Shown one piece after another: positions 23,686-61,104 of a DNA stretch of 64,000 bases. Positions within the stretch are counted from its first letter, which is position 1, and every line of letters begins with the position of its first letter. Made by a program: the position numbers and the translations under genes. The stretch is from Patescibacteria group bacterium. GTDB taxonomy: Bacteria; Patescibacteriota; Patescibacteriia; Patescibacteriales; UBA12465. The stretch lies in NCBI GenBank assembly GCA_041651355.1, contig JBAZJK010000001.1:37883-101882 (forward strand), written 5' to 3'. The notes below the pieces were generated by a model. The model was not told the DNA's origin. It made no database searches and was given only the letters and a program-made list of their open reading frames with translations.

Positions 23686-25758
23686 ATGTCTTTATCTAAT
23701 TTTTTAAAGCCCTCAGCAATTGTTTTGGTCGGCGCGTCTTCTCACCCTGCTAAGATCGGGCACCAGATTTTGAAAAATATCATTAACTCCGGTTTTTCAG
23801 GCAAGATTTATCCGGTAAACTTAAAAGGTGGAAGATTGTTGGGCTGGAAGGTCTATCAGAGTCTAGAAAAACTGCCGTCATTAAAGAAAGTGGGGGCCTT
23901 GGTGGTGATAGCCATTCCCGCTCCCTTAGTTCTGCCTGAGGTCGAGCGGGCCGGCCGCCTGGGCTTCAAGAATCTAGTGATTATTAGCGCCGGTTTCAGG
24001 GAAAGCGGTGCTGAGGGTGTAAATAGGGAAAACCAGCTTAGAGATTTGGCCCAAAAGTTCCATTTGAATATCTTAGGACCGAATTGTTTAGGATTTATAA
24101 ATAATCGCTTACCTTTGAATCTGTCCTTTGCCCAAGCCCTGCCCGCGAGCTCGGGTCAGTCAACCGGCTTAGCCTTCTTATCTCAGTCTGGCGCTTTAGG
24201 TAGCGCCTTGCTTGACTGGTGCCGCGCCAAAAATCTGAATTTCGAACTCTTCATCAGCTTAGGTAACCAAACAGTTCTTTCGGATAATGATTTTTTAGAG
24301 CTCATTTTAAATGATAAGTCGATCAAGGCGGTCTATCTATATTTAGAAGAGATTACCGCCGGGTCAAAATTCATTTCTTTAGTATCGCGCTTGTCTAAGC
24401 GCAAGCCGGTATTTGTATTGTTATCTGGCTTAACTGAACAGGGGGCACAGGCGGCCAAATCTCATACTGGTTCTCTATTGGGCTCATCCTCTTTGGCAAA
24501 GCTGGCCCTAAAAAGAAGTGGCGCAGTCATCTTGGAAAATTTGAGCGCCCTATTCAACAGTTTAGAGTTTTGGTCGTCTCAAAAATGGTCCGGTGATTCG
24601 CCGGCAGACCTTTTTATTGTTTCTAATGCCGGCGGTCCGGCGGTTTTAAGCGCGGATGCCGCTGCTCAGCTGGGCTTAACTTTATCACCCCTGTCTCCTG
24701 GTTTAGCTAAAGAAATGAAAAGGCGCTTACCAATGCTCGATAATTACAACAATCCTTTAGATATTTTAGGCGACGCCGATCCTCAGCGCTATGAGCTGGC
24801 TCTTAAGACTATTTTTGCCAAGCAGGCGAAAGCTCAAGTTTTAGTTTTATTAACTGCCCAGACCATGACTGACCCGATGTCAGTGGCCAAGGTGATGGTT
24901 AAAACAGCCAAAGCCTACCCAAAACAAAGTCTCGCGGCTAGCTTTATCGGGGGTGCCGCCGTCCAAGCCGCTAAAGACTATTTAAGCAAGAACAACATTG
25001 CGGTCTTTGCCAGTCCGGAGGAATTTTTAGGTGCTTATCAAAAATTATTTAACTATATTAAGGGCCGGGCAAGCCTCCAAATTTATGTAGCACCTAAGTC
25101 TTTAAGCAAAAAACCTATTTTAGCCCCTGCCGGCTTTTATGATTATATCGGTTCTTTAGAATTGTTACGTTCTTACGGAATCAAGGTAATAAAAACTATA
25201 AAATATGCAGATTGGCGGCCAGGAGTCCTTAAGTTCCCCGTAGTGCTGAAGGCCGTCGGTCCGGACTTCGTCCATAAAAGTGAAAGCCGCGCGGTCATCC
25301 TTAATCTTCCTGATGATCAAGCGCTTAAGGCGGCGGTTCGGCGTTTAAACCTGTCTTTCAAGAGACAGTTACGCTCCCCGCTTAATTATTTCGTAGTCCA
25401 AGAGAGTGGCCAGGGGCGCCAAGAGATGATATTAGGCTTCAAGCGAGACAAGGTCTTCGGTCCAGTCTTAATGTTTGGCCAGGGGGGTATTTATACTGAA
25501 GTTTTTAAAGATATCGTTTTTAGCTTGCCAGGCTTTGATCAGAAGCAGGCTTTAGAACTGATTAAGCAGTTAAAGATTTACCCGGTATTAAATGGAGCCA
25601 GAGGACAGAAAGCTTATGACCTTAAAGCTTTGATCCAAGCTATTTTAGATTTGAGCCGCTTAGCACTGGAACATCCAGAAATAAAAGAGCTAGATATCAA
25701 CCCCTTGTTTTTAAAGGATAAGGGCGCCCTAGCCGTTGATGTCCGTATTATTATTTAA
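23686..25758 (+). CDS. Acetyl-CoA synthetase (ADP-forming), fused alpha/beta (acetate--CoA ligase, NDP-forming)
   Basis: An N-terminal CoA-binding domain (PSAIVLVGASSHPAKIGHQILKNI), a succinyl-CoA-synthetase-like ligase domain (LGPNCLGF, SQSGALG, HTGSL) and a C-terminal ATP-grasp domain. Confidence 0.8.
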   Translation: MSLSNFLKPSAIVLVGASSHPAKIGHQILKNIINSGFSGKIYPVNLKGGRLLGWKVYQSLEKLPSLKKVGALVVIAIPAPLVLPEVERAGRLGFKNLVIISAGFRESGAEGVNRENQLRDLAQKFHLNILGPNCLGFINNRLPLNLSFAQALPASSGQSTGLAFLSQSGALGSALLDWCRAKNLNFELFISLGNQTVLSDNDFLELILNDKSIKAVYLYLEEITAGSKFISLVSRLSKRKPVFVLLSGLTEQGAQAAKSHTGSLLGSSSLAKLALKRSGAVILENLSALFNSLEFWSSQKWSGDSPADLFIVSNAGGPAVLSADAAAQLGLTLSPLSPGLAKEMKRRLPMLDNYNNPLDILGDADPQRYELALKTIFAKQAKAQVLVLLTAQTMTDPMSVAKVMVKTAKAYPKQSLAASFIGGAAVQAAKDYLSKNNIAVFASPEEFLGAYQKLFNYIKGRASLQIYVAPKSLSKKPILAPAGFYDYIGSLELLRSYGIKVIKTIKYADWRPGVLKFPVVLKAVGPDFVHKSESRAVILNLPDDQALKAAVRRLNLSFKRQLRSPLNYFVVQESGQGRQEMILGFKRDKVFGPVLMFGQGGIYTEVFKDIVFSLPGFDQKQALELIKQLKIYPVLNGARGQKAYDLKALIQAILDLSRLALEHPEIKELDINPLFLKDKGALAVDVRIII

Positions 25759-33725: not shown

Positions 33726-34127
33726 ATGAAATTATTCATCTACACTGATGGTGGCGCCCGTGGCAATCCTGGTCCGGCGGGCATCGGAGCCGTGATTTAC
33801 GATGAAGACAAAAAAGTCATAGCCGAGGTGTCGGAATATTTGGGGGTAGCAACTAATAATCAGGCGGAGTATAAAGCCGTGATTGCCGCCTTAAAGAAAG
33901 CCAAAGAGATGGGTGGCACAGAGCTATCTTTTTATTTAGATAGCGAGTTAGCTGTGAAGCAGCTAAACCGGGAGTATAAAGTAAAAAACAAAGACTTGGC
34001 GCCTTTGTTTTTAGAGGTATATAATTTAAGCTTAAGTTTTAAGAAAGTCTCTTTTTCTCATATCCGCCGCGAGTTCAATCAGGTGGCAGATAGATTGGCT
34101 AATGAGGCGATGGATAGGGGAAATTAA
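33726..34127 (+). CDS. rnhA: Ribonuclease HI
   Basis: TDGGARGNPGPAGIGAVI, NNQAEYKAVIAAL and NQVADRLAN cover the DEDD catalytic residues. Confidence 0.85.
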   Translation: MKLFIYTDGGARGNPGPAGIGAVIYDEDKKVIAEVSEYLGVATNNQAEYKAVIAALKKAKEMGGTELSFYLDSELAVKQLNREYKVKNKDLAPLFLEVYNLSLSFKKVSFSHIRREFNQVADRLANEAMDRGN

Positions 34128-35284
34128 TATCTTTTAGTATATAATCTGCCATCAGAATGACTGTTGGCATATTTTTTTACTGTTTCAAAACTCATTGAGC
34201 TACTAACACAGTTGCCTGGTTCTTTTCCTGAACCTCCGTGGCAGTCCCCGAATAATCCTTTGCCCATATAGATAATAACATGCCCACTGCCTTTTTTATT
34301 ATTTTTTGGTGCCCAACCAACCATATCTCCTGGTTTGAGGCTTTCTAGCTTTTGGTCCCAAACTTGTTGGTCTTTAAATATGTCAGCGCTTCGGCCACCG
34401 GTATCTCGACCAGTGGCACATTTAAAAACAAAGGAAGAAAAGCTGGAACAATCTAAGTAAACGAAATTTCCTGGCGCTGATTGTCCTCGCAATTTCTGGC
34501 TGTAAGTAACTTTACCTTTTGCCTTTTTTACAATCTGCTCCACTGAATCCTGATTACAGTTTACACCCAACACAGAGGCTATACCGGTTACATCAAGTGA
34601 TATTCCTGGCGACTCGTTATCGCCTTCAAGCTCTATTTCCTCTATGTATCCCAGAGACAGGGCTTTGAATTTTGTCAGGTCAGGATTGATCTGGTAGAGG
34701 ATTACATAAGAACAGAGAAGAAGCACCAAGCCGCTAATACTGCCGATGATTAGTTCTTTGGATTGGGTAATTTTGGAAGCGTCGCCACCAGAAACCAGCC
34801 AGATTATACCCCCAATCATCAAAACTATGACGGCTGCAATGCCGGCGATGCCGACGGCGTATTTATAAACACCCCCGATATATTCACCTATCCAATTAAC
34901 CTTGCAGACCGGAGGCGTGCCGGTACATTTGGCTTCGGAGAAATTAGCCATGCCCGGTATTTTTATGGCTAATTCCGGGATTTTGAATTTAGGCTGTTCT
35001 GCTTCTGGCGCCGTCGCATTATTTGTTAGTTGGCCATTGGTAAGAGAAAAATTTCCGATATCACAGCAACATTCTGCTTTTATTAATCCGCATGAACCTT
35101 TGCCGGTGCAAGCGCCAAGGCCGCCAACAGTTCCTCCTAAACTATAGCAAAAATCAGCTGTTGTTTTATGTATTGAGAGATCATTGCATTGCCAGCTACA
35201 GGTTGCAGCTGAAGCAACACTAGATAGGGATAAGCCCAATATGCAGAAAAATAGTATCATTATTGTCTTTTTACCATTTTTCAT
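34124..35284 (-). CDS. Exported Cys-rich protein with a VirB2/TrbC-pilin-like two-helix membrane module fused to a C-terminal NlpC/P60 peptidoglycan endopeptidase domain
   Basis: Four parts are visible: a signal peptide (ILFFCILGLSLSSVASA), a Cys-rich N-domain (CSWQC...ECCCD), a hydrophobic hairpin (AVGIAGIAAVIVLMIGGIIWLVSGGDASK...GSISGLVLLLCSYVILYQINPDL), and NlpC/P60 motifs YLDCSSFSSFVF (catalytic Cys) and GHVIIYMG (His). The start overlaps the porB stop by 4 nt. Confidence 0.65.
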   Translation of the reverse strand: MKNGKKTIMILFFCILGLSLSSVASAATCSWQCNDLSIHKTTADFCYSLGGTVGGLGACTGKGSCGLIKAECCCDIGNFSLTNGQLTNNATAPEAEQPKFKIPELAIKIPGMANFSEAKCTGTPPVCKVNWIGEYIGGVYKYAVGIAGIAAVIVLMIGGIIWLVSGGDASKITQSKELIIGSISGLVLLLCSYVILYQINPDLTKFKALSLGYIEEIELEGDNESPGISLDVTGIASVLGVNCNQDSVEQIVKKAKGKVTYSQKLRGQSAPGNFVYLDCSSFSSFVFKCATGRDTGGRSADIFKDQQVWDQKLESLKPGDMVGWAPKNNKKGSGHVIIYMGKGLFGDCHGGSGKEPGNCVSSSMSFETVKKYANSHSDGRLYTKRY

Positions 35285-36153
35285 ATTTTGTATTTCCTGA
35301 TATTCTCATCCGCTAGGCTTTGGATATATTTTATATCATCCGGTTTTAAATGTTTAAATCTTCCTTGGGCTTTTAAATATTCTTCTACGGGAATAGGCTT
35401 AGATTCTTTCTTGATGCTAGAAGAGCTTAATTTCCCCTCCGTATACTCTAGTAAAGGATAGAGGGCGGTCTGAACGGCTAGTTTACCCATTTTGACTGCC
35501 TCATCATTGTTTATCTTCCAACCGGGCATACAAGGAGAAAGAATCTGGATATAGCTCGGGCCTTGGATGGCCAGGGCTTTTTTAATTTTGTTAGTAATAT
35601 CATCGGGAAAGCCAGCCGTGCTTTGGGCTACATAATTTAGACCATGAGCCAAGGCAACCGCGAGCATGTCTTTTTTTCTTTGCGCTGAACCGATGGATTT
35701 TAGACCATCAGGAGTGGTGGTAGTGCTAGCTCCATAGGGAGTGGCTCCGGAAGCCTGGATGCCGGTGTTGGAATAGGCTTCGGTATCATAACAAATGTAT
35801 AGGATATTTTCTCCTCTTTCCCACATACCGCTGATTAAGCCGAAGCCAATATCAAAAGTGCCGCCATCACCAGCTTGTACGACTACTTTTGTTTTATTAT
35901 CTCCCTTCTTATTCAAAGCGGCCAAGATGCCGGAAGCGACCGAAGCAGCATTCTCGAATAAAGAGTGAATCCAGGGTAGGCCCCAGGCGCTTTGCGGATA
36001 TGAGGTTGTAGTTACTTCAAGACAACCAGTAGCATTGGCGATAATAACATCTTTATTTAAAGCTCTCATGACCGCCTGAGCGGCGACCATCTGGCCGCAA
36101 CCCGCGCAGGCATTATGGCCAGGCGAGAGGAAGGAATTATTTTTATTTAACAT
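35281..36153 (-). CDS. porB: Pyruvate:ferredoxin (2-oxoacid) oxidoreductase, beta (TPP-binding) subunit
   Basis: CAGCGQ, GDGGTFDIGFG (TPP/Mg motif) and SPCMPGW. Confidence 0.9.
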   Translation of the reverse strand: MLNKNNSFLSPGHNACAGCGQMVAAQAVMRALNKDVIIANATGCLEVTTTSYPQSAWGLPWIHSLFENAASVASGILAALNKKGDNKTKVVVQAGDGGTFDIGFGLISGMWERGENILYICYDTEAYSNTGIQASGATPYGASTTTTPDGLKSIGSAQRKKDMLAVALAHGLNYVAQSTAGFPDDITNKIKKALAIQGPSYIQILSPCMPGWKINNDEAVKMGKLAVQTALYPLLEYTEGKLSSSSIKKESKPIPVEEYLKAQGRFKHLKPDDIKYIQSLADENIRKYKI

Positions 36154-36174
36154 ATATCTCTGTCCCCTAGTTTT

Positions 36175-37287
36175 TTATTGGCAAATATTTGGTCCATTTA
36201 ATTTAAGCTTACAGTCGCCATGACTTTCAGAACCGCATTTACAAGTGAGGTTATTATCAGAATTACAGCATTGGTAGTTTTCCCAGTTTGCGCTGCCACA
36301 CTCAGAACCAAAAAGTTTGCAACGTTGACAGGTTTTATTTAGGCAATAACCCGCGATATTTCTGAATAAGATTTGTTCGCCGTTAACATTTGCAAACTCA
36401 TCAAAAGCACAAGAAGATTCATCTGCTAGCTGAGCGCAAGCCTCAGCCGCGCTGACAATAGTTTCTGGTGGTTCCGGTTGGGCGGCCGCAGTTTCAGCTT
36501 CGGCGCATTTATAAGCGCTGTTTTCTGGTACTTTAACGTATTGAGTTCCGCAGGCAATGCAGTCGCCACCGTGAGGTGCACCAGTATTCCCCGAGCCCAT
36601 TGAACTCCCCATATAGGTTGCCCATTTGCAATAGACGTATGAATAATCTGCTGGAGACTGCTGGCAACAACAAATCTGTTGTCCGGGAACTTCAGCTTTT
36701 TTAACCGAACATTTAGCTAGGCCAGCCTCTATTTTATTCATGCATTTATTATCTTTCCAGGCACACATAGCTATCGCGTTACAGGTTGAAGAGGCCACGG
36801 CGTCTTCGCATGATACGGCCGAATCTATGTTAAGGTTCTTTTCTTTAATCTGGGTGACATTTTGTATCTTGAATTTAAGAAGATCGGGATTAATCGTATT
36901 AAGTAGTATCCAAGAGCAGAGCAGTAAGGCCAGGCCAGTGATGCTGCCACCTATCAGGTCTTTGGCTTGCCCGACTTTACCGGGGTTGCCTCCGGATGTC
37001 AGCCAAATGATGCCGGCAATCATCAAGACGATTACCGCTACGATACCGACAATCGCTAAAGCATAGTTATAAAAAGCGGCCACATATTCTCCTATGTACA
37101 CAGTGCTACTTGTAGTCATGGATCTTGGCGCGTCATTTTGGAAATTGGAGCCAGGGATGCTAATAGAGGTTTTGAGTTCTATCGGATCGGCTGCGCTTGC
37201 TGGGTTGGGAGAAATTAATAAATTAAAGGTTCCTATAATTACAGTAAATAGAACCAAAAGAAAAACAATTGTTGTTTTTTTCTTCAT
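36175..37287 (-). CDS. Exported protein with a VirB2/TrbC-pilin-like two-helix module and a large Cys-rich C-terminal ectodomain
   Basis: A signal/anchor is followed by the module YIGEYVAAFYNYALAIVGIVAVIVLMIAGIIWLTSGGNPGK...GSITGLALLLCSWILLNTINPDLLKF, which is paralogous to the module in the 34124..35284 product. About 230 aa with many Cys residues follow (ICCCQQ, CIACG, CQRCKLFGSECG, CKCGSESHGDC). Confidence 0.55.
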   Translation of the reverse strand: MKKKTTIVFLLVLFTVIIGTFNLLISPNPASAADPIELKTSISIPGSNFQNDAPRSMTTSSTVYIGEYVAAFYNYALAIVGIVAVIVLMIAGIIWLTSGGNPGKVGQAKDLIGGSITGLALLLCSWILLNTINPDLLKFKIQNVTQIKEKNLNIDSAVSCEDAVASSTCNAIAMCAWKDNKCMNKIEAGLAKCSVKKAEVPGQQICCCQQSPADYSYVYCKWATYMGSSMGSGNTGAPHGGDCIACGTQYVKVPENSAYKCAEAETAAAQPEPPETIVSAAEACAQLADESSCAFDEFANVNGEQILFRNIAGYCLNKTCQRCKLFGSECGSANWENYQCCNSDNNLTCKCGSESHGDCKLKLNGPNICQ

Positions 37288-37298
37288 ATATTAAATAA

Positions 37299-38465
37299 TT
37301 ATCCCCAAAACTTCACTTCCTTTGCTTTCTTTTTGGAAAACTTAACTATGTCTTTAATAATCTTCTGAGTGACATCACGGCCGCCGAGGCCGACAATATG
37401 GTTAGTGATGTTTAGCTTATGCGTTCCTAACCCAGCCTTGATATCGCTATACAAAGGCCCCATTTCCCCTAAGCTAATCGCTTTTTCTATGACAGCTAAA
37501 TTTTTGGCTTTAGCTAGGATCTTATTTATTTCCTCTTTCGGGAAGGGCCGGTAGCTTTTTATTTTTAATAATCCGACATTTTTCTCTTTTTTAATGGCTT
37601 CTTGGATGGTGCCGGTAACTGAACCCATGGCGGCAATTACCAGATCGGGGGCGTTGGGGCCGTAGTATTCAACTAAGCCATTGTCAATTTGCGGTTTGAG
37701 AGCGCTTAATTCTTTTCTTTGGCTAAGCTTTTTGTATAAAACATACTCCTGTTTTATTATACTTTGGCTAGCTAGCAAATCCTGATGCAGTTTCTGTCTG
37801 GTCTCTTGGTAATATTCTGGCGTAAAGAAGGCGCCTAGGGTGATAGGTAATCTAGGATCAAGGTAGCTGCCCAGGGTAGGGTTGTAGTCTGGCAGATATC
37901 TTCTGATTAGTTTGCTATCGGGAATGATGACATTCTCATAAGAATGGGTGATGATAAAGCCATCGACATTAACCATCACTGGCAGGTTCAGTTTTTCTGC
38001 CAGCTTATAGGCGATGACGTGAAGATCGACTGCTTCTTGGTGGTTAGCGGCAAAGAGAAGGATCCAGCCGGCGTCGCGGATAGCCATAACGTCGCTTTGG
38101 TCATTAAAGATATTAATCGGAGCGGAAACGGCGCGGTTGGCACAGGTCATAACTATCGGCAAACGCAGGCCGGCAATATTAAAAACCACCTCAGTCATTA
38201 GCAACAGGCCCTGGGAGCTAGTCGCGCTATAGACGCGGCTACCGGTAGCACTAGCCCCGAGGATAATCGAGGCGGCTGCAAATTCACTTTCAGCTCGGAC
38301 ATATTCATAATTAGCCTGTCCTTCAGCTTTATATTTAGCCAACGTTTCTACGATATGGGTCTGGGGTGTAATCGGATAGGCAGAAATTACGCTTGGTTCC
38401 AAATTTTTTATCGTCTGAGCGATGGCTTGCGAGCCTTCGAGTAATTGAGTTTTGTTTAGAGACAT
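37299..38465 (-). CDS. porA: Pyruvate:ferredoxin oxidoreductase, alpha subunit
   Basis: MSLNKTQLLEGSQAIAQ...AYPITPQT...EFAAASIILGASATGSRVYSATSSQGL. The track ORF extends to 38633, overlapping porD in another frame; the internal ATG at 38465 gives the canonical N-terminus. Confidence 0.9.
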   Translation of the reverse strand: MSLNKTQLLEGSQAIAQTIKNLEPSVISAYPITPQTHIVETLAKYKAEGQANYEYVRAESEFAAASIILGASATGSRVYSATSSQGLLLMTEVVFNIAGLRLPIVMTCANRAVSAPINIFNDQSDVMAIRDAGWILLFAANHQEAVDLHVIAYKLAEKLNLPVMVNVDGFIITHSYENVIIPDSKLIRRYLPDYNPTLGSYLDPRLPITLGAFFTPEYYQETRQKLHQDLLASQSIIKQEYVLYKKLSQRKELSALKPQIDNGLVEYYGPNAPDLVIAAMGSVTGTIQEAIKKEKNVGLLKIKSYRPFPKEEINKILAKAKNLAVIEKAISLGEMGPLYSDIKAGLGTHKLNITNHIVGLGGRDVTQKIIKDIVKFSKKKAKEVKFWG

Positions 38466-38469
38466 AATT

Positions 38470-38751
38470 TTAATAGTCTTTTTCCATACTGATAGCCTTG
38501 ACCGGGCATTCAGCCGCGCAGAGGGCACAGCCTTTACAATAATCGTAATCAGTAATCGGGATGTTCTTATCGTTTCTTTTAACCATTGTGATACAAGCTT
38601 CAGGGCAGACCTTAGAACACAAAGAACAGCCAATACATTTCTTGTAATCCGTCTGCGGCCGAAAACTGCGCCAGGGGCCGGTTTTATTATCCAGGGATGA
38701 ATTCGCTTTGACGGCGGGAATTTTGTTTATTTTTTTGGTTTTGGTCTTCAT
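38470..38751 (-). CDS. porD: Pyruvate:ferredoxin oxidoreductase, delta (2x[4Fe-4S] ferredoxin) subunit
   Basis: CIGCSLCSKVCP and CKGCALCAAECP. Confidence 0.9.
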   Translation of the reverse strand: MKTKTKKINKIPAVKANSSLDNKTGPWRSFRPQTDYKKCIGCSLCSKVCPEACITMVKRNDKNIPITDYDYCKGCALCAAECPVKAISMEKDY

Positions 38752-39320
38752 ATGGAAAAAGCTTTAAGGGCGGCTTGGATATTCTGGCTGACAACTGCCT
38801 GGCCTTTGCCGCTGAATTTATTTTCCATAGCTTTTTTGATCGAGGCTAGGCTAATCAGCTGGCTATAGCGAGCCAAGGCTCCTAACAGGGGAGCGTTAGC
38901 CAGATTTTTCTTGAATATTTCTATAGCGATAGCGGTGGCCGGAGTGATAAATATGTTTTTTTCCGTAATCAACCCTTTGTTTTTGCTAGATTTTTTAATA
39001 ATTTGGTATATTTCTTTAGCGCTTAGGGAGCTGTTAACTATTATTTTAGTATTTTTCTTAGCTCCAACTAGAACGTCTACGCTGTTAAGCAGGCTGTCAT
39101 CTTGGATAATCAGGATATCCGGTTCGTAAATCTGTTCCCGATTGTTTATCGGTTTATCATCCAGGCGGACGAAGGATTGGATAGGGGCGCCACTCCTTTC
39201 TACACCGAAAAGAGGGAAGGCTTGGGCATAGCGTCCTTCATTAAAAGCGGCTAAAGCAATCAGCTCGGCCGCCGTGACTACGCCCTGGCCGCCGCGGCCA
39301 TGGATGCGGATTTGGATCAT
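38748..39320 (-). CDS. porG: Pyruvate:ferredoxin oxidoreductase, gamma subunit
   Basis: IRIHGRGGQGVVTAAELIALAA. The 190-aa length fits, and there is a 4-nt overlap with porD. Confidence 0.9.
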   Translation of the reverse strand: MIQIRIHGRGGQGVVTAAELIALAAFNEGRYAQAFPLFGVERSGAPIQSFVRLDDKPINNREQIYEPDILIIQDDSLLNSVDVLVGAKKNTKIIVNSSLSAKEIYQIIKKSSKNKGLITEKNIFITPATAIAIEIFKKNLANAPLLGALARYSQLISLASIKKAMENKFSGKGQAVVSQNIQAALKAFSI

Positions 39321-39325
39321 AATTT

Positions 39326-40075
39326 TTACTGGTTTAGATATTTTTCTATTAAGGCGTTAAACTGTTCTTTTTCCATATGTCCGGTGACGCGATGGCGGCC
39401 GATGAACCAAGTCGGTGTTTTTTCTACTCCCAAAGCCTCACCATCTTCCAGATTAGCCCGGATATTGTCTAAATAGGCTTTGTCGTTGAGACAAGCGCTA
39501 AAATCGTCAGTGTTAAGTTTGAGGTCTAGGGCTAGGGACCTGAGATTGATGTCTAAATCGGCTTCGCTAGCCTTGAGACTGTCTTGGTTGGCAAATAGAG
39601 CGTCATGCATCTCCCAAAATTTTCCTTGGGCGCCAGCACACCAGGCTGCTTGCGATAAATCGATCGATTTTTCGCTGATGACCGGGAAATCGCGGAAGAT
39701 AATCTTGACTTGGTCCTTATATTTTTCTCCGGCTTGCCTGATTACTTCTGATAGTTGTTTGCAATAAGGGCAAGCGAAGTCAGAGAATTCAACAATAATC
39801 AGCTTAGGGCTTCCGGCACCTAAGTAATAATTATTTGCGCCATATAAGGTGGCCTCGGCTTGTTTTTGTAAGATTAAATTCTGGCTGTCAGCTCTTTCTT
39901 GGTTGATTCGTTTAGCTTCGTTTATGACATACCAAAAAGACAGGGCCGCAATTATCATAATCAACGCCAAAATCCCGATTAGTACCTTTCCCCAGGGTTT
40001 TTTATACCAAGGCCTCAGGGTTTTTTGGTGGCGAGATTTCATCTCCGCCAGCTTGATTCTATCTTCTAAGCTCAT
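39326..40075 (-). CDS. Membrane-anchored DsbA-family thiol:disulfide oxidoreductase
   Basis: An N-terminal TM helix (VLIGILALIMIIAALSFWYVI) and a thioredoxin-fold CxxC active site (FSDFACPYCKQ). The gene ends 5 nt upstream of porG. Confidence 0.8.
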   Translation of the reverse strand: MSLEDRIKLAEMKSRHQKTLRPWYKKPWGKVLIGILALIMIIAALSFWYVINEAKRINQERADSQNLILQKQAEATLYGANNYYLGAGSPKLIIVEFSDFACPYCKQLSEVIRQAGEKYKDQVKIIFRDFPVISEKSIDLSQAAWCAGAQGKFWEMHDALFANQDSLKASEADLDINLRSLALDLKLNTDDFSACLNDKAYLDNIRANLEDGEALGVEKTPTWFIGRHRVTGHMEKEQFNALIEKYLNQ

Positions 40076-40142
40076 TGAAAAATAAGTTAAGATTAACTAT
40101 ACTTTTATTATAACATAAAGCCTGAAAAAAGTAATGAAATAT

Positions 40143-44530: not shown

Positions 44531-45169
44531 ATGTTGGCCAGTAGTCAATCCGATAAAAATATTTCCCAGACCGCTAATGATTCTAAGGCTCTTCCGCCGC
44601 AACAACGCTGGGCCGTTATTTTGTTATCAGCCCTTGGCTTGTCAGTCATAATATTTTGGGCTTGGCAGTTTAAATCGCGGGTTAGCGGTCCCTTCCAGAT
44701 ACCCGAGAATAAGGATAAATATGCGGCTATCGCCAGTTCTACTGATTTGACTAAAGATACGGATGGCGATGGCCTAACCGATTATGAAGAAAGCTCTGTT
44801 TACGAGACCTCTCCTTATTTAGCTGATTCCGATAGCGATAATATAAATGATGGCCAAGAGATAAAGCAGGGAACTAATCCAAATTGCCCAACTGGGCAGA
44901 CCTGCGGCCTAGAAGCGATTGCGCCTCCTTCAGCCAGCTCTTCTAATATCTTGGGTGAAACGACCGCCTCGGAAACCGATGTGACTTTAGAAGAAAAATT
45001 AGTTAACGGCGATATCAGTCCGGCTGAGTTGCGCCAGCTCCTCTTAGATAATGGTGCCGACCAAGCATCTTTAAGCCAGATAAGCGACCAAGATTTGTTG
45101 CAATTCTATCAAGAAACCCTTCAATCTCAGATGAACGCTAGTTCGTCTCTGCCCGCGTTATCACAATAA
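44531..45169 (+). CDS. Membrane-anchored protein with thrombospondin type-3-like Ca-binding repeats
   Basis: One TM helix (WAVILLSALGLSVIIFWAW) followed by DTDGDGLTDYEE...DSDSDNINDGQE. It ends 15 nt before the giant ORF. Confidence 0.5.
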   Translation: MLASSQSDKNISQTANDSKALPPQQRWAVILLSALGLSVIIFWAWQFKSRVSGPFQIPENKDKYAAIASSTDLTKDTDGDGLTDYEESSVYETSPYLADSDSDNINDGQEIKQGTNPNCPTGQTCGLEAIAPPSASSSNILGETTASETDVTLEEKLVNGDISPAELRQLLLDNGADQASLSQISDQDLLQFYQETLQSQMNASSSLPALSQ

Positions 45170-45184
45170 AATCTTTATAAAAAC

Positions 45185-48100
45185 ATGTCTCAAGATTTTA
45201 AAAGTCAGCCGAAAAATCCAAATCGTCAGGCTTTTTTTAGTTTTAGAAAAAAGATTGTCAGCGCCATATTCCTCTTAGCCTTCGGTGCCTTGGTTTTTGG
45301 CGTTCAGAATGTCAGGGCGCAACTAGTCACTACCGACCCTGGGTCTACAGCCGCGACGGTTGTCCAAACGAGTAAGGATATAATGAAAACAGTAAAGGAT
45401 ACTTGGTGGAATAAAATGGTAAAAATTTTGACCAGAGCCGGCTCGAAGGCTTTTAATGTAACTTTAAGAAGGGCTCTTAATAAAGTTGCCTATGATTATG
45501 CCACTGCTTTAGGTTCTGGAGATTGGGGGCAACAACCTTTATTCCAAGCCAGGAATTGGGGTGATTATTTTTCTGATATTGGAGATGAAGCCGCTGGTGA
45601 ATTCATTGAAGGCTTCGCCAATGATTTTAGTGAAGAGAACGCTAAACTAACCAAAGAACTTAACACCCAAGAAGTTAATGCTCATAATGATAGGGCTAAT
45701 TGTCTTAAGGCCTGCGAAGAATCAGCAGGCAGCGGAGCTTTGATGGGGGGAGATTACAGCCAACTTTTAGCTCAGTGCCAATCAGGCTGTATGTCTGCAT
45801 ATGATGCCACCATGGGGCCAATCAAAGAGAAAGAAAAAAGCTTGGGACAAAATAATCGCCCAATCGCTACCTGCCAACCGTCCTCGATTGATGTCAAACT
45901 GAAGATCGCTTTAGGTTTAGCTCAGGTTAACCGTCCCGCCGCCCCCAACTGTTCGGCTACAGAAATGATTAATAATTGGGGTAAGTTAGCTGATAACTAT
46001 CCTGATAAGTTAAAAAGTTTCAGTAGTCCAGACTATTTAGCTAAAACTTTGCCCAACATCTTTAATCCGGTTTCTAATGATTTAGGCATCGCCTTGACTC
46101 TGAGAAGTGATTTGTTGAGCAAGCAGGCTGAAAAAGATGCAAACGCTAAATTACAAGCCTCTATCGGTCAAGGTTATACGGATAAGCGCAATATCGCTGG
46201 CAATTTAATCAGTATTCCTAACAAGTCACGCATGGATACCGAAGCTTCTGGGCAGATGTATGCCGAAAATTTTGGCCAGTATACTGGCGACGCTTTCATT
46301 GATGCGGCCAATATTTTTATCAACCAAGCCGCTTTGACAGCTTGGAATAAATTGATGGCTTCTTTAGCTGAAAAGGCTAAAAAAGGCAATGATAAAGATA
46401 AAGATGACCCTTGTGCATCAAACCTCAACTCTGAAGCTTGTTTATTCTGTACTAAAAATCCCAATGATCCAAGCTGTCGAAAAACTACCAAGGTAGCTGG
46501 ATGCAACCCTCTCACCGACCCAAGTTGTGCTCCGGTCAGCTATGCCGAAGGCAATGTCCAGGAAGCGGCCTCGGTTTTAATCAAGCCTAGCTTTACCACT
46601 CAGGCTGATTATGATATTTTGCCCAGTTTGAGCACTTGTGTCGATCCGAATAACCCTGGTCCGACCGAGTGCGTTATTGATGAGCGCTTCTTGCAGGCGG
46701 TAACGGAGAAAAAGACTGTGGCTGAAGCCATAAAAGATAATTTTTTGAATAAAACCTGGCTCTTAAGCGGTAACAGCAAGGACTATAACAGTTATAATAT
46801 TAGGAACATCAGTATTTTAAGAAAATATAGAATTTTACCGGTCGGCTGGGAGGAAGCAGCTAACAAGATTGCTAAATTAAATAAGAAAGCCAGTTTAATG
46901 GATTTGGTTTCTTGCTTTAACCCTAATGATGAATATAACGAATTTGGCAGCCAGTTCGATGTCCGCGACCAAGCTTGGTGTGAAGGTTTAGTTGATCCTA
47001 ACTGGGTTTTGAAAGCACCTTTGAATTATTGTCGTAAACAAGGATCCGGCGGTCAGATTAGGGATTTACAGATCGTTCCTGGGCAATCAGGCCAGGGAGC
47101 TATTTCTGATCTGCCCAGTTCTCTGATTGTCAGCCGGGCGGACGAATATTGTGCCGATGAACAGTCATGCATCAAAGAAAAGGCCGATGGCAGCTGTGAG
47201 GCCTATGGCTATTGTAATACAGAAAAACGGACCTGGTCTTTCGGCCAAGATGCTTGCGAACCTATCTATAATACTTGCCAGACTTTTACCAAGGCTAACG
47301 GATCTTCGGTCTCTTATCTAAAAAACACCTTGGATTATGGTACCTGTAATGCTGATAATGCTGGTTGCCAAGCCTATTCTTGGTTTGGTTCATATAACTC
47401 AAGCAACGGACAAGTAGCTTGGGATATCGCTAAGCAGATTTACTTAAATGATAAGGCCGGCGTATGTTCGGCTAATGAAGAGGGCTGTACGGCTCTATAT
47501 CGGGTAAAACCGAGTTGGGGTTCTAATTTAATCATGAATGCTAATTTTGATAATGACCAAATTGGTGATACTTCTGATGATTTGGCGCAATGTACTACCT
47601 TGGGATCTCATTTAAATGATTGGTATTTTAGGAGCATGAGCTCTTCAGCTAATAATTGCAACGCCGAGATTTTTGACGCTTCAGGCTTGTCAGTTAATGG
47701 CAAGGCCCTTAAGCTTTCAGCCCAGTCTGGAGATATCGGTATCTATTCCGGAGATAATCATTCTTTACTGCCCGATGATTTTTCTTTCTTGAGCGGGCAA
47801 TCATATACATTTAGCGCTGATGTCTATCTCGTTTCTAGCAGCGGCGTCAGTCTCTGGATTGGGGATGATGCAGCTATTCCTAGCAATGCCGCTTCCACCA
47901 GCCAAAAAGGCTCTTGGCAACACCTTAGTTTCACCCGGAGCGCTCTGGATAATATTAATGATCCGGAGTTCGCGGTCAGGGGTGAAGCGGAATCCGGTTC
48001 GGTGGAATTTTATATCAAGAATCTTAAGTTCGAATTAAGTGATTTTGATACCGGCTACAGGTTGTATGGCGCCTATAAAGTCTATGAAAAAGTTTTGCCT

Positions 48101-51100
48101 CCATACCTTGAAGCCGCTTGTTATGTAAATGCCGGCTCGGGCGTTAGTGATTATACTTTAAAGCCGAATGCTCCTAGTATTTGTTCTACTTTTGCCCGTA
48201 AGTGTAATAAGAATGAAGCTGGTTGCGAACTTTATTCCTCTTTGGATAATTTCGCTATCCCGGCCCAGACCGTTCCTGCTGATTATTGCCCCGGCGAATG
48301 TTTAGGCTATGATACCTATGTTTCCAAGCAAAGTTATTTTAATTCACCAGCGGCGGAAAATCTTATTCCTAGAACAGCTCGTACTTGTACAGCTGCTAGC
48401 GTCGGTTGCAGCGAATTTACCAATTTAGACGAAACGGCTCGGGGAGGAGAGAATAAAGAGTATTATTCTTTCTTGAAGCAATGTATCAAACCGGATCCTA
48501 ATGCTTGCGGTGATTTCTATGTTTGGCAGAATGGCAATGAGAGCGGCTATCAACTCCAGGCGTTAAGCTTAAAGATCGATACGGCCGACCAAGATCCTTA
48601 TACGGTTGAAGATGATAGTGCTGCTTGTAGTGAAACAGTCTATAATTCTTTACCCGGTGATCCGAATTATAATCCAGATTGCCGCCAATTCTACAATAAG
48701 GCCGGTAATGTTTCATATCATTTAATCTCTAAGACGGTCAGTTGTTCGGATGAATGTAAAACTTTCCGCATGTCGGAAAAGAACATCGATGCTACTATTG
48801 TAAACCAGGCGGCTTGTAATGCTAGTAACCAGAGTTGGGATGCGGTTAATAACGTTTGTTATTCCTGCTTGAGCGGCGGCCAATGGGACGCCGGCCAGCA
48901 GGCCTGTCTGTATAAAGCTATTCCGAGCGAAGGGACTAAGTGCAGCGCTCAAGAAAACGGTTGCCGTGAATTCAACGGTAATCGCGGCAACAATTTACGT
49001 CTAATCCAGACCTATGATTTCGAAAATGGCATTTCTCCTTGGGAAACCGATGACGCTACCGCTACTTCCAGTCCGGACTCGAATAATAAAGACGGCAGTT
49101 CGATTAAGATCGATCCGAGCGGCATGGGAGGAATCAAGACTACTCTCGGCTATATTATAAATAGCCAAGCTTCTTATGTCATTAAATTTTTAGCCAAAGC
49201 GGAAAATACCACCAAGATGAGAATTTCCTTATCTAATAATGATGGCGGAGTCAGCGTCTTTGGTCCGGCTAATCCCGATAGCTTAGAGCTTAAGGGCGAT
49301 AACAGTTGGCACAGCTATCAAATCAATCTTAATGTCTTAAACCACGAAGTCAGCAGTGAAGAGTACTTGCTCTTAGAGGTGGACAATATTGTTAAGCTCG
49401 ATAATGTTGTCTTACAGGAAATTAGTGATAAGTATTATCTAATCGCGCGTTCCAGCGCTATTCCGGATATCTGCTATTATGACATGTTGGATAAATTTCA
49501 AGGCGCTGATTATAATCTGGGTTGTTCCGCTTATGCTGATCGTAACGGTGTCCAGCATAATTTGCATCAATTCAGTCGCCTGTGCCAAGATTCGGCCGTC
49601 GGTTGTGAAATGATGATTAATACCTATAATTACAGCCCCTATAACAGTCGGCTCTTCAATGATCTTAACGACAATAAAGTCTGTGATAGTAATGAGCCTG
49701 ATTGCGTCAAGGTTAAGCAGGATGGCATCGTTTACGCCGTTTTCGATAAGAGCAAGCAATGTAATAGCGCCGACCAAGGCTGTTCGTTGTTTGGCCAAGC
49801 CCAGAAACAAGGCGTGACTTGGTATTTTAACAATGTCTATAAGAAAAATAATCCTGACAGTTACGATCAGTCCCTCTGCCGCAGCGGCGATGTCGGCTGC
49901 GCTAAGTGGAGTGATGATAATGGCGGCGAAAGCTACTTTAAAGATCCCGGCCTTAATGCCTGTGTCTATCGCAATGCCGCTAGCGGCAGCGGTAAAGATT
50001 GGTTCCGCATTCCAGTCAAGCGTTGCGACCTTAATGACGATGGCCAGATCAAGAATGTTAGCGGCGCCAATGAGTCTGCCGGCAGTCTGTGTTTTAGTGA
50101 TACTGATTGCAGTGATGGTCACAAGTGTTTAGTGGACAATAATGATTACAGTTGCAGTTCTTCTTATCTAAAGACCATCGGCTACGGCGGGGTTAATAAC
50201 CGCATCCCTACTCCTGATGGATCGGCTGGTTTATGCGAGGCCACAGCTTCTGGCTGTACAGAGTATATTGACCCGGTTAGTAAATTTTCTAGCAATTTAG
50301 TGATCAATCCTAACTTCGAAGATACTAATGGCGACGGCAAGATAGGGGACGGTTGGACTACTTATACATATGGCTCCGAGATTTTCTATAAACAGAGAAT
50401 TTCTATCCAAGCTGGCCGCCTGTATAAATTCTATTTCTCCAATCCGGTAAACAATTTTGCTATCAATTTCAAATGTGATGAAGATTTCCGGGCTCTAGGA
50501 CCTGATAACCAATTCAGCGGACCGCAAAAGAGCTCAAAGGTCTTGGCTAACAGCCCGCTCCTATTCTTATCCCCAATCAATAATACTTGCGAGATAAGGG
50601 AGGGTAAGGCTGATAGAAGTTTTGAACTTAAAGAAGCGATTGTCAGTTATCAAAAACAGAATGAAGTTGACCAGAAAAGCTGTAATGGAATAGTTAATTT
50701 TGAAAATGGTTGTGTTTTATTCAACGAAAGGAGCCAATCTGGGTCCAAGCCTTCAAGCCTTTTGGGCGCGTGGGATGCCGGAGCTAGCCGGGATAAGAAT
50801 TCGCCTGCTGCTTGCGGGACAACCACGGTTTCTAACGTTAGCCAGTCTTGTGAAGATACTTGCTATCCTCTAGCCGATATATCCTTTAATACCTGTAATA
50901 CTAATAAACTGATTAAGGTCAGACCTGACCGAACTTGCGGCGCCTGGTTAGATTGCAGCTCCTATGCTATCGATCCGGAAACCAAGGAAAAGACTTGCTA
51001 TGCCGTCAGCCAATGCGATCGCTTGGATGATAAGAAGGAGTGCGCTAGTTTCGTTAAGGCGGCGGCTACTTCCACTTCTATCCATAGTTTCAGTTTTGGC

Positions 51101-55852: not shown

Positions 55853-55864
55853 TTTCAAAACCAA

Positions 55865-58426: not shown

Positions 58427-58436
58427 TTGATTATTT

Positions 58437-59630: not shown

Positions 59631-59654
59631 TTAGCAGCTTAATATCATTTAGAA

Positions 59655-59679
59655 ACGAGACCACGAGGTCTCGTTTTTT
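59655..59679 (+). terminator. Rho-independent terminator inside the T4SS-like cluster
   Basis: ACGAGACC acga GGTCTCGT followed by ttttt. Confidence 0.75.
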
Positions 59680-59778
59680 GCTAAACTTTAGCTTCTTCGT
59701 AAAGAGCTAGGCTCTCTTTCCTCTTTTTGGCAAAATGTGCTAAAATAAAACCAGAATAAATTATTTTTTGCCGGTTTC

Positions 59779-61101: not shown

Positions 61102-61104
61102 TAT

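Follow-up and report, generated by a model that had tools for sequence, protein, structure and literature searches.

Seven genes of a patescibacterial genome raise the question of why the subunits of a cytoplasmic enzyme of central metabolism should be interleaved with genes for cysteine-rich, pilin-like proteins, and whether the two sets of genes depend on each other. They lie on the minus strand at positions 34124-40075 of the 64,000-nucleotide stretch of DNA analysed here ("the window"), in the order dsbA, porG, porD, porA, S1, porB and S2, as read from the ORF listing and the sequence.

Architecture of the array

These seven genes are the sole block of minus-strand genes in the 64-kb window, so the unit is bounded on both sides by strand switches. 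It starts with dsbA (39326-40075, 249 aa), separated from the divergent xth by a 58-nt intergenic region (40076-40133) in which the operon promoter probably lies, and continues with the genes for the gamma (porG, 38748-39320, 190 aa), delta (porD, 38470-38751, 93 aa) and alpha (porA, 37299-38465, 388 aa) subunits of the oxidoreductase; the real ATG of porA is at 38465, the mechanical ORF beginning farther upstream at a TTG. The VirB2-like gene S1 (36175-37287, 370 aa) separates porA from porB (35281-36153, 290 aa; the TPP-binding beta subunit), and S2 (34124-35284, 386 aa), encoding a VirB2-like hairpin and an NlpC/P60 domain, comes last. Junctions from dsbA to S2 measure, in order, 5, -4, 4, 11, 21 and -4 nt, both overlaps being ATGA sequences in which the stops of porG and porB overlap the starts of porD and S2, respectively. 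The convergent plus-strand rnhA (33726-34127; RNase_H and RVT_3 in Pfam), a flank conserved in relatives, marks the 3' end of the unit, and its stop (34125-34127) and that of S2 (34124-34126, minus strand) both fall within the sequence TTAA. Composition is uniform over the block. Pfam and NCBIfam confirmed all seven gene identities, and these, like the spacing and the stop overlap, agree with what the first-pass annotation had listed. That the DNA comes from Patescibacteria was likewise borne out.

The metabolic half of the array is readily recognised. PorG matches Pfam POR (3.1e-39) and TIGR02175 (186 bits, above cut-off); PorD matches Fer4 families in Pfam and TIGR02179 (89.8 bits, above cut-off), with two CxxCxxCxxxCP motifs readable in its translation; PorA matches POR_N (3.8e-70) and PFOR_II (3.8e-24), its best NCBIfam match, PorA_Arch, scoring 415 bits where the equivalog cut-off is 550; and PorB, whose translation shows CxxC and GDGG motifs, matches TPP_enzyme_C (1e-18), its best NCBIfam match, PorB PRK11865, reaching 363 of the 405 bits set as cut-off. 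The product is most likely a four-subunit 2-oxoacid:ferredoxin oxidoreductase with pyruvate as its substrate (POR). Its downstream partner, ADP-forming acetyl-CoA synthetase, is encoded apart at 23686-25758.

DsbA and the two pilin-domain proteins

An N-terminal hydrophobic segment and CPYC and TP motifs, the former being the active site, can be read in the dsbA translation (MFA5162965.1 at NCBI, "thioredoxin domain-containing protein"), which matches Pfam Thioredoxin_4 (1.1e-26) and DSBA (2.3e-17); these features identify the product as a membrane-anchored DsbA-type thioredoxin-fold oxidoreductase. S1, called "pilin" by NCBI, scores 35.1 bits against PF18895 (T4SS_pilin; cut-off 26.6), and its AF2 model has a signal helix (residues 4-23) and a helical hairpin (63-97 and 102-132, pLDDT 82-90), from which S1 is predicted to be an exported two-helix hairpin protein. 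Its C-terminal ectodomain, 225 aa with 24 cysteines, matched no Pfam family. S2 (MFA5162959.1, "NlpC/P60 family protein") scores 34.2 bits against PF18895 and 25.6 bits against NLPC_P60 (cut-off 23). Its N-terminal region is cysteine-rich, with 10 Cys, residues 125-212 form a VirB2-like hairpin, and at the C-terminus lies a peptidoglycan hydrolase domain of the NlpC/P60 family, whose catalytic DCSSF cysteine motif and GH...IY histidine motif align with PDB 7cfl_A and 6b8c_A.

Of 76 S1/S2 proteins, 73 match PF18895, and the richness in cysteine is kept as well (S1, a median of 18 in about 195 aa; S2, about seven N-terminal and eight C-terminal). The S2 heads vary by lineage: VanY/M15, 3D (weak matches), SLT_3, Peptidase_C39_2, M15_4 and NlpC/P60. 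The two "Cys-rich pilin-like" genes of the first-pass annotation are thus cysteine-rich indeed, while their identity has been revised to VirB2-type proteins of the T4SS_pilin family that form a pilin module with dsbA. Classical VirB2 is about 100 aa long. Since S1 and S2 differ from it in their size of 370-386 aa and in their large ectodomains, they may not polymerise into a pilus.

A proposed link to type IV secretion

The same genome carries a T4SS-like cluster on the plus strand at 61105-64000, with a PrgI/VirB3-like gene (61105-61575; Pfam PrgI), a TraC-like gene (61585-62259) and a VirB4-like gene that starts at 62287 and runs past the window end; residues 3-565 of the VirB4 of locus L085 match 62287-63999 at 71% identity (tblastn). 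The continuation of this genome (L089) reads VirB4-u203-RadA, without DsbA or pilin, so that the full order is PrgI-TraC-VirB4-u203-RadA and the dsbA-pilin-pilin module is absent there. In other Patescibacteria the module sits within such clusters: L085 and L086 have TraC-VirB4-u183-u160-u415-DsbA-pilin (S1-like)-pilin (S2-like, with an M15-type head)-RadA, the order u415-dsbA-pilin(-pilin)-RadA recurs in L151, L163 and L166, L157 has VirB4-u183-u415-dsbA-pilin, and more distant members of the S1/S2 family sit in PrgI/TraC-like/VirB4 clusters. The DsbA of the L085 module is 31% identical to that of the window.

Homology and this context in other genomes suggest that dsbA, S1 and S2 constitute the pilin/envelope module of a patescibacterial T4SS-like system. 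That the DsbA serves the cysteine-rich proteins, as had been proposed, gains comparative support from the contiguous recurrence of dsbA-pilin-pilin in other Patescibacteria and from the conserved cysteines of S1 and S2, which would be oxidised by DsbA.

Conservation of the arrangement

Of 60 distinct related loci containing both the porA end and the porB start, 59 have at least one pilin-domain gene between the two (one in 49, two in 10), and S1 orthologues fill this slot. The shared order, leuS- xth- / dsbA porG porD porA PILIN porB (PILIN) / rnhA- recJ-, is found in about 45 species-level genomes. A subfamily HMM found no other pilin-domain ORFs in the window, nor any outside the por array in the porA-anchored loci L001-L080, and in outgroup loci from outside the Patescibacteria, among them Omnitrophota, Chloroflexi and Azospirillum, the interval from porA to porB gave no pilin-like hit. 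The insertions are therefore not peculiar to this assembly, a doubt that the first-pass annotation had itself raised. Dozens of independent assemblies, produced by different studies, as well as metagenome contigs show identical order, and the NCBI accessions of S2, porB and dsbA (MFA5162959, 5162960 and 5162965) are spaced as expected for seven coding sequences in a row; misassembly, or a recent insertion confined to this lineage, is thereby refuted and keeps a negligible probability. The arrangement is far beyond chance, real and ancient, and clade-wide in ultrasmall Patescibacteria of the Falkowbacteria type. It is apparently undescribed so far, as no paper was found that reports a dsbA-led por operon with interleaved VirB2-like genes.

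Five related loci (L115, L116, L119, L127 and L131) read leuS- xth- / dsbA S1 S2 / rnhA- recJ-, with gaps of 8-15 nt and no por remnants at the locus. In these loci S1 and S2 are orthologues of the por-linked ones, and the S2 head of L131 is 56% identical to the NlpC/P60 head of the window. In neighbour-joining trees of three markers without an outgroup, the por-less lineages nest among por-bearing ones in 96 of 100 bootstrap replicates, which indicates that all four por genes were lost later at this locus in some lineages while dsbA-S1-S2 were kept. As por could be lost without loss of dsbA-S1-S2, the link between por and S1/S2 is probably not one of biochemical dependence, and a biochemical coupling of POR with S1/S2 is unlikely.

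Probable promoter and transcription unit

An extended -10 box, TGTTATAAT, lies at 40115-40107 on the minus strand, 32 nt upstream of the dsbA ATG. Counting TGnTATAAT at a match of at least 5/6 and at most 100 nt upstream of a gene, we found it before dsbA in 55 of 58 related loci (95%), although patescibacterial promoter rules still lack experimental grounding; before internal genes it was rare (porG 12%, porA 3%, porB 10%, S1 4/44, S2 0/27). A promoter-like site for xth on the plus strand (TTGAAA-17-TATACT, 40075-40103) overlaps the intergenic region. No terminator-like sites were found on the minus strand inside the array, as the first-pass annotation had held, and the count of such sites for the array is not above that of shuffled sequence. 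Spacing, promoter motif and missing terminator-like hairpins together suggest that dsbA-S2 is a single transcription unit in which por would be co-expressed with dsbA, S1 and S2; the earlier claim of one transcript is supported indirectly by the motif, which is conserved before dsbA only.

Alternative explanations

One may also consider that there is no true operon, the packing merely reflecting genome compactness, with S1, porB and/or S2 driven by promoters of their own in upstream coding sequence. Same-strand gaps elsewhere in the window are equally short (the plus-strand genes are packed just as tightly, so that short gaps alone are not special), the extended -10 motif is matched at 5/6 four times inside the array, in porB and S2, promoter-like hexamer pairs are present inside S1 and porB, and in some relatives S1, S2 or porB is flanked by gaps of 118-987 nt, with room for unrecognised promoters. 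Yet promoter-like sites in the array are not enriched (18 versus 14.4 +/- 4.4 in shuffled sequence), the conservation of the extended -10 box is confined to dsbA and does not extend to the long gaps before porB of relatives, and there are the two ATGA overlaps and the lack of terminator-like hairpins, all of which make this scenario improbable. Somewhat easier to defend, albeit still unlikely, is the view that S1 and S2 are unrelated to type IV secretion and that the PF18895 hairpin simply anchors the cell's own wall-remodelling enzymes or surface proteins, which would be compatible with the operon reading. The S2 heads belong to ordinary peptidoglycan hydrolase families, both proteins exceed VirB2 three- to fourfold in size, their genes lie 22-26 kb from virB4 in the window genome, and Foldseek found no pilin match; nevertheless, VirB4 clusters of other Patescibacteria directly enclose homologous dsbA-pilin-pilin modules, and the window's T4SS cluster has no other pilin. 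Peptidoglycan hydrolases, moreover, are standard T4SS components. A precedent is Southlakia, where peptidase and lysozyme genes adjoining virB4 are essential (PMC12102498).

A further possibility is adaptive coupling, in which host-contact or T4SS surface proteins and pyruvate oxidation are needed together in fixed proportion, for instance if a host substrate supplied through the T4SS feeds POR. In its favour are the pilin gene kept between porA and porB in all but one of the 60 loci despite PorA divergence down to about 51%, the persistence of porA-S1-porB where an inversion took away dsbA-porG-porD (L033, L040 and L048), the recurrence of the porB/S2 ATGA overlap in 14 related loci, and a precedent in CPR, where the Pam pilus operon and ATP synthase genes are co-localised (bioRxiv 10.64898/2026.03.03.709456). 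However, the por-less relatives retain dsbA-S1-S2 at the same locus, other lineages hold the module in a T4SS cluster with por not nearby, division of the por subunit genes into two units is tolerated, as seen from the inversion, and the acetyl-CoA synthetase is encoded separately. To our knowledge, no mechanism joins a VirB2-like membrane hairpin to cytoplasmic POR. We therefore consider such coupling quite unlikely, and the meaningful tie to energy metabolism that had been proposed is not supported as a functional dependence.

We rather favour, as the probable explanation, a relocated T4SS envelope module that became transcriptionally fused with porGDAB, two once-separate modules now being interleaved in one unit. 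One module would comprise the membrane-anchored DsbA, S1 (signal peptide, hairpin, hypervariable cysteine-rich ectodomain) and S2 with its lineage-varying hydrolase head, and the other the four-subunit oxidoreductase. The dsbA-S1-S2 genes would have departed from the end of a T4SS cluster, where they still lie in other lineages, and landed between xth and rnhA; an insertion, and after it tandem duplication and differential loss, would probably account for the mixing with porGDAB. Transcription would begin at the conserved extended -10 promoter in the xth/dsbA spacer and, there being no conserved internal promoter or terminator and two ATGA overlaps, pass through all seven genes, so that no PorB would be made without S1 transcription. 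POR would assemble in the cytoplasm, while S1 and S2 would be exported by Sec and anchored by their hairpins, with the ectodomains outside and oxidised by DsbA. The link would then be shared transcription, possibly a strong housekeeping promoter used for abundant structural proteins. Against this reading, the near-constant pilin gene between porA and porB could reflect selection for linkage rather than inertia.

Comparison with known systems

Four-subunit pyruvate/2-oxoacid:ferredoxin oxidoreductase operons of the porGDAB/porCDAB type are known from Thermotoga, Pyrococcus and Helicobacter. The por genes of the window resemble them in having four subunits in gamma-delta-alpha-beta order with the diagnostic domains and Cys/TPP motifs, and differ in that dsbA comes first, a VirB2-like gene lies between alpha and beta and a second follows beta. 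T4SS-associated peptidoglycan hydrolases include VirB1, and PrgK/TcpG in Gram-positive systems, and F-like T4SSs have the thioredoxin-fold proteins TraF/TrbB; here, too, a wall hydrolase and a disulfide oxidoreductase accompany secretion machinery, and the DsbA even gives a weak Pfam TraF match (E = 0.0087). In contrast to VirB1 and PrgK/TcpG, S2 joins its hydrolase head to a VirB2-like hairpin, with repeated exchange of the head among lineages, and unlike TraF/TrbB the oxidoreductase is of DsbA/Thioredoxin_4 type.

S1 and S2 share the PF18895 family with the VirB2-like pilin arrays of patescibacterial T4SSs (Quinonero-Coronel et al. 2025, PMC12102498; also Wang et al. 2023, as cited in PMC12102498 and PMC12857230), and the window genome has a PrgI/TraC-like/VirB4 cluster. 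Unlike in those arrays, porB is the non-pilin gene that separates the VirB2-like genes, a central-metabolism operon houses the array at a distance of 22 kb from virB4, and the module includes a DsbA gene and large cysteine-rich or hydrolase ectodomains; the survey of PMC12102498 reports none of these features, and its text contains no occurrence of DsbA, ferredoxin, VanY or NlpC. The Pam pilus operon of CPR, which lies near ATP synthase genes (bioRxiv 10.64898/2026.03.03.709456), likewise shows conserved proximity of surface-filament and energy-metabolism genes in Patescibacteria. Its pilin, Ig-like and assembled by donor-strand exchange, is unrelated to S1 and S2, its metabolic partner differs, and its association is one of neighbourhood, whereas that of the window is gene-by-gene interleaving in what appears to be one operon.

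Gene content of the por block

The array is the only minus-strand block in the 64-kb window, so that its seven genes form a unit bounded by strand switches on both sides. They follow one another as dsbA (39326-40075, read from the ORF listing and the sequence; Pfam Thioredoxin_4/DSBA), porG (38748-39320; POR), porD (38470-38751; 2x[4Fe-4S]), porA (37299-38465, with the true ATG at 38465; POR_N and PFOR_II), the first VirB2-like gene S1 (36175-37287; T4SS_pilin, PF18895), porB (35281-36153; TPP_enzyme_C) and the second VirB2-like gene S2 (34124-35284; PF18895 and NLPC_P60). The junctions measure, in this order, 5, -4 (ATGA), 4, 11, 21 and -4 (ATGA) nt, and the TTAA at 34124-34127 is common to the stop of S2 and that of the convergent rnhA; both the tight spacing and the shared stop had been described in the first-pass annotation, and the ORF listing and sequence bear them out. 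Short intergenic distances are nevertheless the rule all along the window and not peculiar to this array. GC content is even across the block, and a scan of the whole window at Rfam gathering thresholds gave zero matches. The NCBI annotation of the 881,714-bp contig calls S1 "pilin", S2 "NlpC/P60 family protein", porB "thiamine pyrophosphate-dependent enzyme" and dsbA "thioredoxin domain-containing protein", and the accession spacing of S2 (MFA5162959), porB (5162960) and dsbA (5162965) fits seven consecutive coding sequences.

The por part is an ordinary four-subunit member of the POR/VOR family. All four subunits have Pfam matches far over the cut-offs, with POR_N and PFOR_II in alpha and the POR domain in gamma; a TPP-binding domain, the GDGG motif and the Fe-S cysteines can be read in beta, and two CxxCxxCxxxCP motifs in delta. 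PorG and PorD exceed the subfamily cut-offs of TIGR02175 and TIGR02179, and in NCBIfam the four products fall in the pyruvate/2-ketoisovalerate subfamily. As to substrate specificity, the NCBIfam equivalog cut-offs were all missed: PorA best matches PorA_Arch (415 bits, under the cut-off of 550) and PorB best matches PorB PRK11865 (363 bits, under 405), with the Vor, oxalate and phenylglyoxylate models scoring under these two. An ADP-forming acetyl-CoA synthetase (23686-25758, plus strand; CoA_binding_2, Succ_CoA_lig, Ligase_CoA_2 and ATP-grasp_5) fits a pyruvate-to-acetate route. This expected downstream partner of POR lies 8 kb off on the opposite strand, outside the por unit.

The DsbA protein scores 94.5 bits with Thioredoxin_4 and 63.8 bits with DSBA, and a CPYC motif, a TP motif and an N-terminal hydrophobic anchor are all readable in its sequence. 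These match the thioredoxin fold, CxxC active site, cis-Pro loop and extracytoplasmic location of DsbA-type proteins. The support for DsbA as the putative oxidase of S1 and S2 is contextual, coming from a recurrent dsbA-pilin-pilin module and from the kept Cys content of the pilin-domain proteins.

Conservation of the interleaving

A PorA-based scan with one genome per species recovered about 49 loci from Patescibacteria, many titled Candidatus Falkowbacteria, with PorA identities of 51-78%, plus non-patescibacterial outgroups. By tblastn and ORF synteny, the order in these genomes is leuS and xth on the opposite strand, then dsbA, porG, porD, porA, a pilin-domain gene, porB and, where present, a second pilin-domain gene, followed by rnhA and recJ, again on the opposite strand. 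Between porA and the pilin-domain gene the gap mostly falls within -4 to 13 nt; the ATGA overlap of porB and S2 is found again in 14 loci. The outgroup loci (Omnitrophota, Chloroflexi, Azospirillum and others) gave no pilin-like match between porA and porB, and a PorB homologue search added no taxonomic breadth, the 120 matches listed containing very close relatives only.

These genome loci were pooled with metagenome loci recovered from the pilin side, using an alignment of 10 pilin-domain sequences, and 60 distinct loci that have both the porA end and the porB start were counted. One pilin-domain gene separates porA from porB in 49 of the 60, two do so in 10, and none in a single locus, L047, which is also the sole locus with a PorA at least 50% identical that lacks a pilin gene at this position. 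This contig, 5.7 kb long and labelled Planctomycetia, is of uncertain affiliation, and its PorA is 53% identical. The first-pass annotation had allowed that the inserted genes might prove unique to this assembly; with the gene kept in 59 of 60 loci, this is not so. In the 64-kb window, an HMM of the pilin subfamily detects two ORFs and no more, both within the array; in the porA-anchored loci (L001-L080) it detects no ORF outside the por array.

Evidence for a single transcript

The minus strand carries an extended -10 box, TGTTATAAT, at 40115-40107, which is 32 nt ahead of the dsbA ATG. When TGnTATAAT (at least 5/6) was counted in the 100 nt upstream of each gene in the compared loci, it was present before dsbA in 55 of 58, before porG in 12%, before porA in 3%, before porB in 10%, before S1 in 4 of 44 and before S2 in 0 of 27. 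In the window, the 100 nt upstream of each internal gene contain no such motif and the minus strand of the block contains no terminator-like hairpin; the first-pass annotation had seen no internal terminators, which holds, and had proposed a search for internal promoters and terminators. Promoter-like and terminator-like counts in the block show no excess over shuffled sequence. A separate porB promoter was sought in the long gaps that precede porB in some lineages. These gaps show no consistent or recurring promoter motif, and we regard such a promoter as improbable. At the level of sequence the block has the features of an operon: all genes on one strand, junctions that are short or overlap, a single promoter and no internal terminator. 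We infer with moderate confidence one mRNA spanning dsbA to S2, for which the promoter motif is the best sequence-level support to hand. The TGnTATAAT box is also a candidate promoter motif for an uncultured group.

The divergent spacer between xth and dsbA (58 nt, 40075-40133) holds, here and in relatives, two conserved and overlapping promoter-like elements: TGnTATAAT toward dsbA, and TTGAAA(A) plus TATACT on the other strand toward xth, the xth element showing up in aligned upstream regions as two conserved strings, TTTTTCAA and TATACT. At the other end, the sole terminator-like site for the unit is a 12-bp hairpin between A and T runs (33984-34012, minus strand), 110 nt past the S2 stop and within the rnhA coding sequence. 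Since in most relatives S2 and rnhA overlap or lie end to end, the convergent transcripts must overlap.

S1 and S2 are VirB2-like proteins with large ectodomains

S1 and S2 match PF18895 with 35.1 and 34.2 bits, respectively (gathering score 26.6), and 73 of 76 proteins encoded at the S1 and S2 positions do so at E <= 0.01. Each has a signal peptide with an AxA site (ASA|A in both). The AlphaFold2 model of S1 predicts a helix at residues 4-23 and then helices at 63-97 and 102-132 (pLDDT 82-90), that is, the signal peptide and the hydrophobic two-helix hairpin with a short loop of the PF18895 build. Judging from the topology of VirB2, this VirB2-type hairpin would leave the flanking regions on both sides extracellular. 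Typical T4SS_pilin or VirB2-like proteins have about 100-130 aa and little beyond the hairpin. S1 (370 aa) and S2 (386 aa) do not have this small-pilin size, having ectodomains of 174-225 aa past the hairpin and, in S2, another 124-125 aa or so ahead of it; because they agree with pilins in sequence and hairpin and not in size, we term them VirB2-like rather than demonstrated pilins.

In S1, a short N-terminal region precedes the hairpin, which is followed by a C-terminal domain of 225 aa with 24 Cys. In relatives this domain is hypervariable, yet it keeps a median of 18 Cys per about 195 aa. It matches no Pfam family, and NCBIfam has no model for S1 or S2. As confidence in the S1 model is limited to the signal helix and hairpin, with low pLDDT in the Cys-rich ectodomain, and a Foldseek search of the PDB with this model found nothing significant (best E = 3.2), no fold is assigned to this domain.

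S2 combines a Cys-rich N-terminal region with a C-terminal peptidoglycan hydrolase head, which in the window is NlpC/P60 (NLPC_P60 25.6 bits, cut-off 23), with the catalytic Cys (DCSxF) and His motifs in register with PDB 7cfl_A and 6b8c_A. The head family varies by lineage, among NlpC/P60, VanY/M15 (a cluster of 10), 3D (a cluster of 12, with a weak match), SLT_3, Peptidase_C39_2 and M15_4. S2 may be read as a putative VirB2-VirB1 fusion, a hairpin carrying interchangeable peptidoglycan hydrolase heads, and this reading is separable from any adaptive coupling to por. VirB1 is apparently absent from most patescibacterial T4SS; the hairpin-hydrolase S2 may be a substitute for it, and if S2 is such a fusion, this could account for the apparent absence.

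Relationship to type IV secretion

Distant members of the family occur in T4SS-like clusters with PrgI (VirB3-like), a TraC-like protein and a VirB4-like ATPase (loci L081, L082 and L087). In L085 and L086 the order is TraC-VirB4-u183-u160-u415-DsbA-pilin(245 aa)-pilin(349 aa)-RadA, where the u-numbers denote further ORFs. Here the first pilin has the build of S1 (short N-terminal region, Cys-rich C-terminal domain) and the second that of S2 (Cys-rich N-terminal region, M15/VanY-like head), its head matching the S2 VanY cluster at 1.7e-13. The order u415-dsbA-pilin(-pilin)-RadA recurs in L151, L163 and L166, and L157 has PrgI-TraC-VirB4-u183-u415-dsbA-pilin.

At the 3' end of the window (55205-64000, plus strand) lies a T4SS-like cluster of its own, consisting of u215, three ORFs, PrgI (61105-61575, plus), TraC-like (61585-62259, plus) and VirB4 (from 62287, plus, running off the window), the last being 71% identical to the VirB4 of L085. 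In the 5' part of this cluster, u215 is a homologue of the u160 of L085 and the unannotated ORFs encode 853, 397 and 440 aa. The continuation of the cluster in the same genome (L089) reads VirB4-u203-RadA, without DsbA or pilin. The S1 and S2 genes thus lie 22-26 kb from PrgI, TraC and VirB4 here, while their homologues elsewhere in Patescibacteria are inside such clusters. Since dsbA-pilin-pilin is T4SS-linked elsewhere and the T4SS cluster of the window lacks it, dsbA-S1-S2 would be a T4SS pilin/envelope module that in this clade has, judging from gene order, moved out of the T4SS cluster and is now 22 kb away, mixed with por. This agrees with published data, in which 1,948 patescibacterial assemblies have VirB2-like pilins (PF18895/PF04956) and only 1,135 have them near virB4 (PMC12102498), and in which not only the T4SS and a pilin array but also the adjacent peptidase and lysozyme genes are essential in Ca. 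Southlakia epibionticum (PMC12102498, PMC12857230); the T4SS-like system and its VirB2-like pilins are essential in the single species tested (PMC12102498, PMC12857230).

Other genes of note were seen in the window. Upstream of the T4SS-like region (44531-53626, plus) are genes for a TSP3-repeat protein (212 aa) and then for a 2813-aa protein with matches to CBM_4_9 and DUF4141, which may be a giant surface protein. A 668-aa protein (10669-12675, plus) ends in a Por_Secre_tail domain (type IX secretion sorting; E = 1.3e-10), which is unexpected in a monoderm Patescibacterium.

Locus variants and the loss of por

Five loci (L115, L116, L119, L127 and L131) have no por genes and read leuS and xth on the opposite strand, dsbA-S1-S2 with gaps of 8-15 nt, and rnhA and recJ on the opposite strand, i.e. 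the same flanks as in por-bearing loci; L129 and L152 show this arrangement in part. No por remnants are left in the por-less loci. Their S1 and S2 are orthologous to the por-linked ones: the S2 head of L131 is 56% identical to the NlpC/P60 head of the window, and that of L115 is 56% identical to that of L010. L129 has four pilin genes in succession after dsbA.

In a bootstrapped neighbour-joining tree of RecJ, RnhA and Xth, the por-less loci nest among por-bearing lineages, grouping with some por-bearing taxa (bootstrap 96/100) apart from the window and from a deep group of 11 por-bearing taxa. A tree of LeuS, Xth and DsbA concurs, although it is blurred by two LeuS types in the relatives, and for this reason the RecJ, RnhA and Xth tree was used to infer por loss. 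LeuS is 50-56% identical to that of the window in L011, L022, L029, L040, L075 and L131 and 62-68% identical in other loci, while the other flanking genes are equally similar in both sets, which suggests two LeuS types in the clade and replacement by transfer. The parsimonious reading of the por-less loci is that porGDA and porB were cleanly lost and dsbA-S1-S2 retained.

Other variants affect the por genes themselves. In L033, L040 and L048 the xth-dsbA-porG-porD segment is inverted, which splits the por subunit genes over two strands, and porA-S1-porB stay together and follow xth directly (after 4 nt in L033 and L040). The order dsbA-porGDA-S1-S2-porB is found in L024 and in a deeper lineage (L020, L028, L122, L143 and L150); in the deeper lineage a gap of 0.5-1 kb or small ORFs precede porB and the downstream flanks differ. 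S2 is absent in seven loci and extra pilin copies, in either slot, are present in about ten. The variants show tandem duplication to be active at the por locus. The interleaving could thus have arisen by insertion of porGDAB beside the module, with duplication and differential loss thereafter.

Discussion

The arrangement is real and clade-wide. A misassembly or a recent insertion is ruled out by the comparative evidence from related loci. In the mechanism that we propose, a single promoter upstream of dsbA would give one polycistronic mRNA from dsbA through S2, with translational coupling at both ATGA junctions. POR would be assembled in the cytoplasm, where the acetyl-CoA synthetase at 23686-25758 would be able to complete a route from pyruvate to acetate plus ATP. 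S1 and S2 would be exported by Sec, anchored by their VirB2-like hairpins and oxidised by the membrane-anchored DsbA, and would work with a T4SS-like machine, S2 giving a VirB1-like wall-cutting activity.

One may ask whether the interleaving is adaptive, that is, whether surface proteins of T4SS or host contact are hard-wired, in a fixed ratio, to a POR that oxidises (host-derived) pyruvate. The tight junctions and the conserved position of the pilin gene would suit such coupling. The module is apparently functional without por and the por genes tolerate splitting, and this argues against biochemical dependence; we regard the adaptive reading as quite improbable. A plausible, if speculative, benefit is that a housekeeping promoter would provide high constitutive expression of structural surface proteins. 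Taken together, the anatomy, the conservation, the origin of the module and the loss of por are held with high confidence, the T4SS function of S1 and S2 and the absence of any adaptive coupling with moderate to low confidence.

A large part of bacterial diversity belongs to the Patescibacteria, which have a host-attached lifestyle. In one large clade of them, the pilin part of the T4SS appears to have departed from the T4SS cluster, to include its own DsbA as well as a wall hydrolase that is anchored by a pilin hairpin and has exchangeable heads, and to share a transcript with the probable main enzyme of pyruvate oxidation. In nature the module is found in variants that are T4SS-linked, por-interleaved in two orders, or por-less, making the locus a concrete and testable case of operon remodelling in extremely reduced genomes. 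Annotation pipelines and metabolic reconstructions that seek contiguous por operons should expect split por genes.

A literature search for Falkowbacteria POR and for CPR "T4SS pilin" found no paper, and the survey in PMC12102498 makes no mention of DsbA, ferredoxin, por or pilin-hydrolase fusions; the papers searched do not seem to describe the por interleaving, the dedicated DsbA or the hairpin-hydrolase fusion with exchanged heads. Among described systems, the patescibacterial T4SS with its arrays of VirB2-like pilins comes closest. The theme of pili and metabolism is not unprecedented, since an unrelated pilus operon of CPR that adjoins ATP synthase genes, and for which a metabolic link was suggested, has been reported in a preprint from 2026 (bioRxiv 10.64898/2026.03.03.709456).
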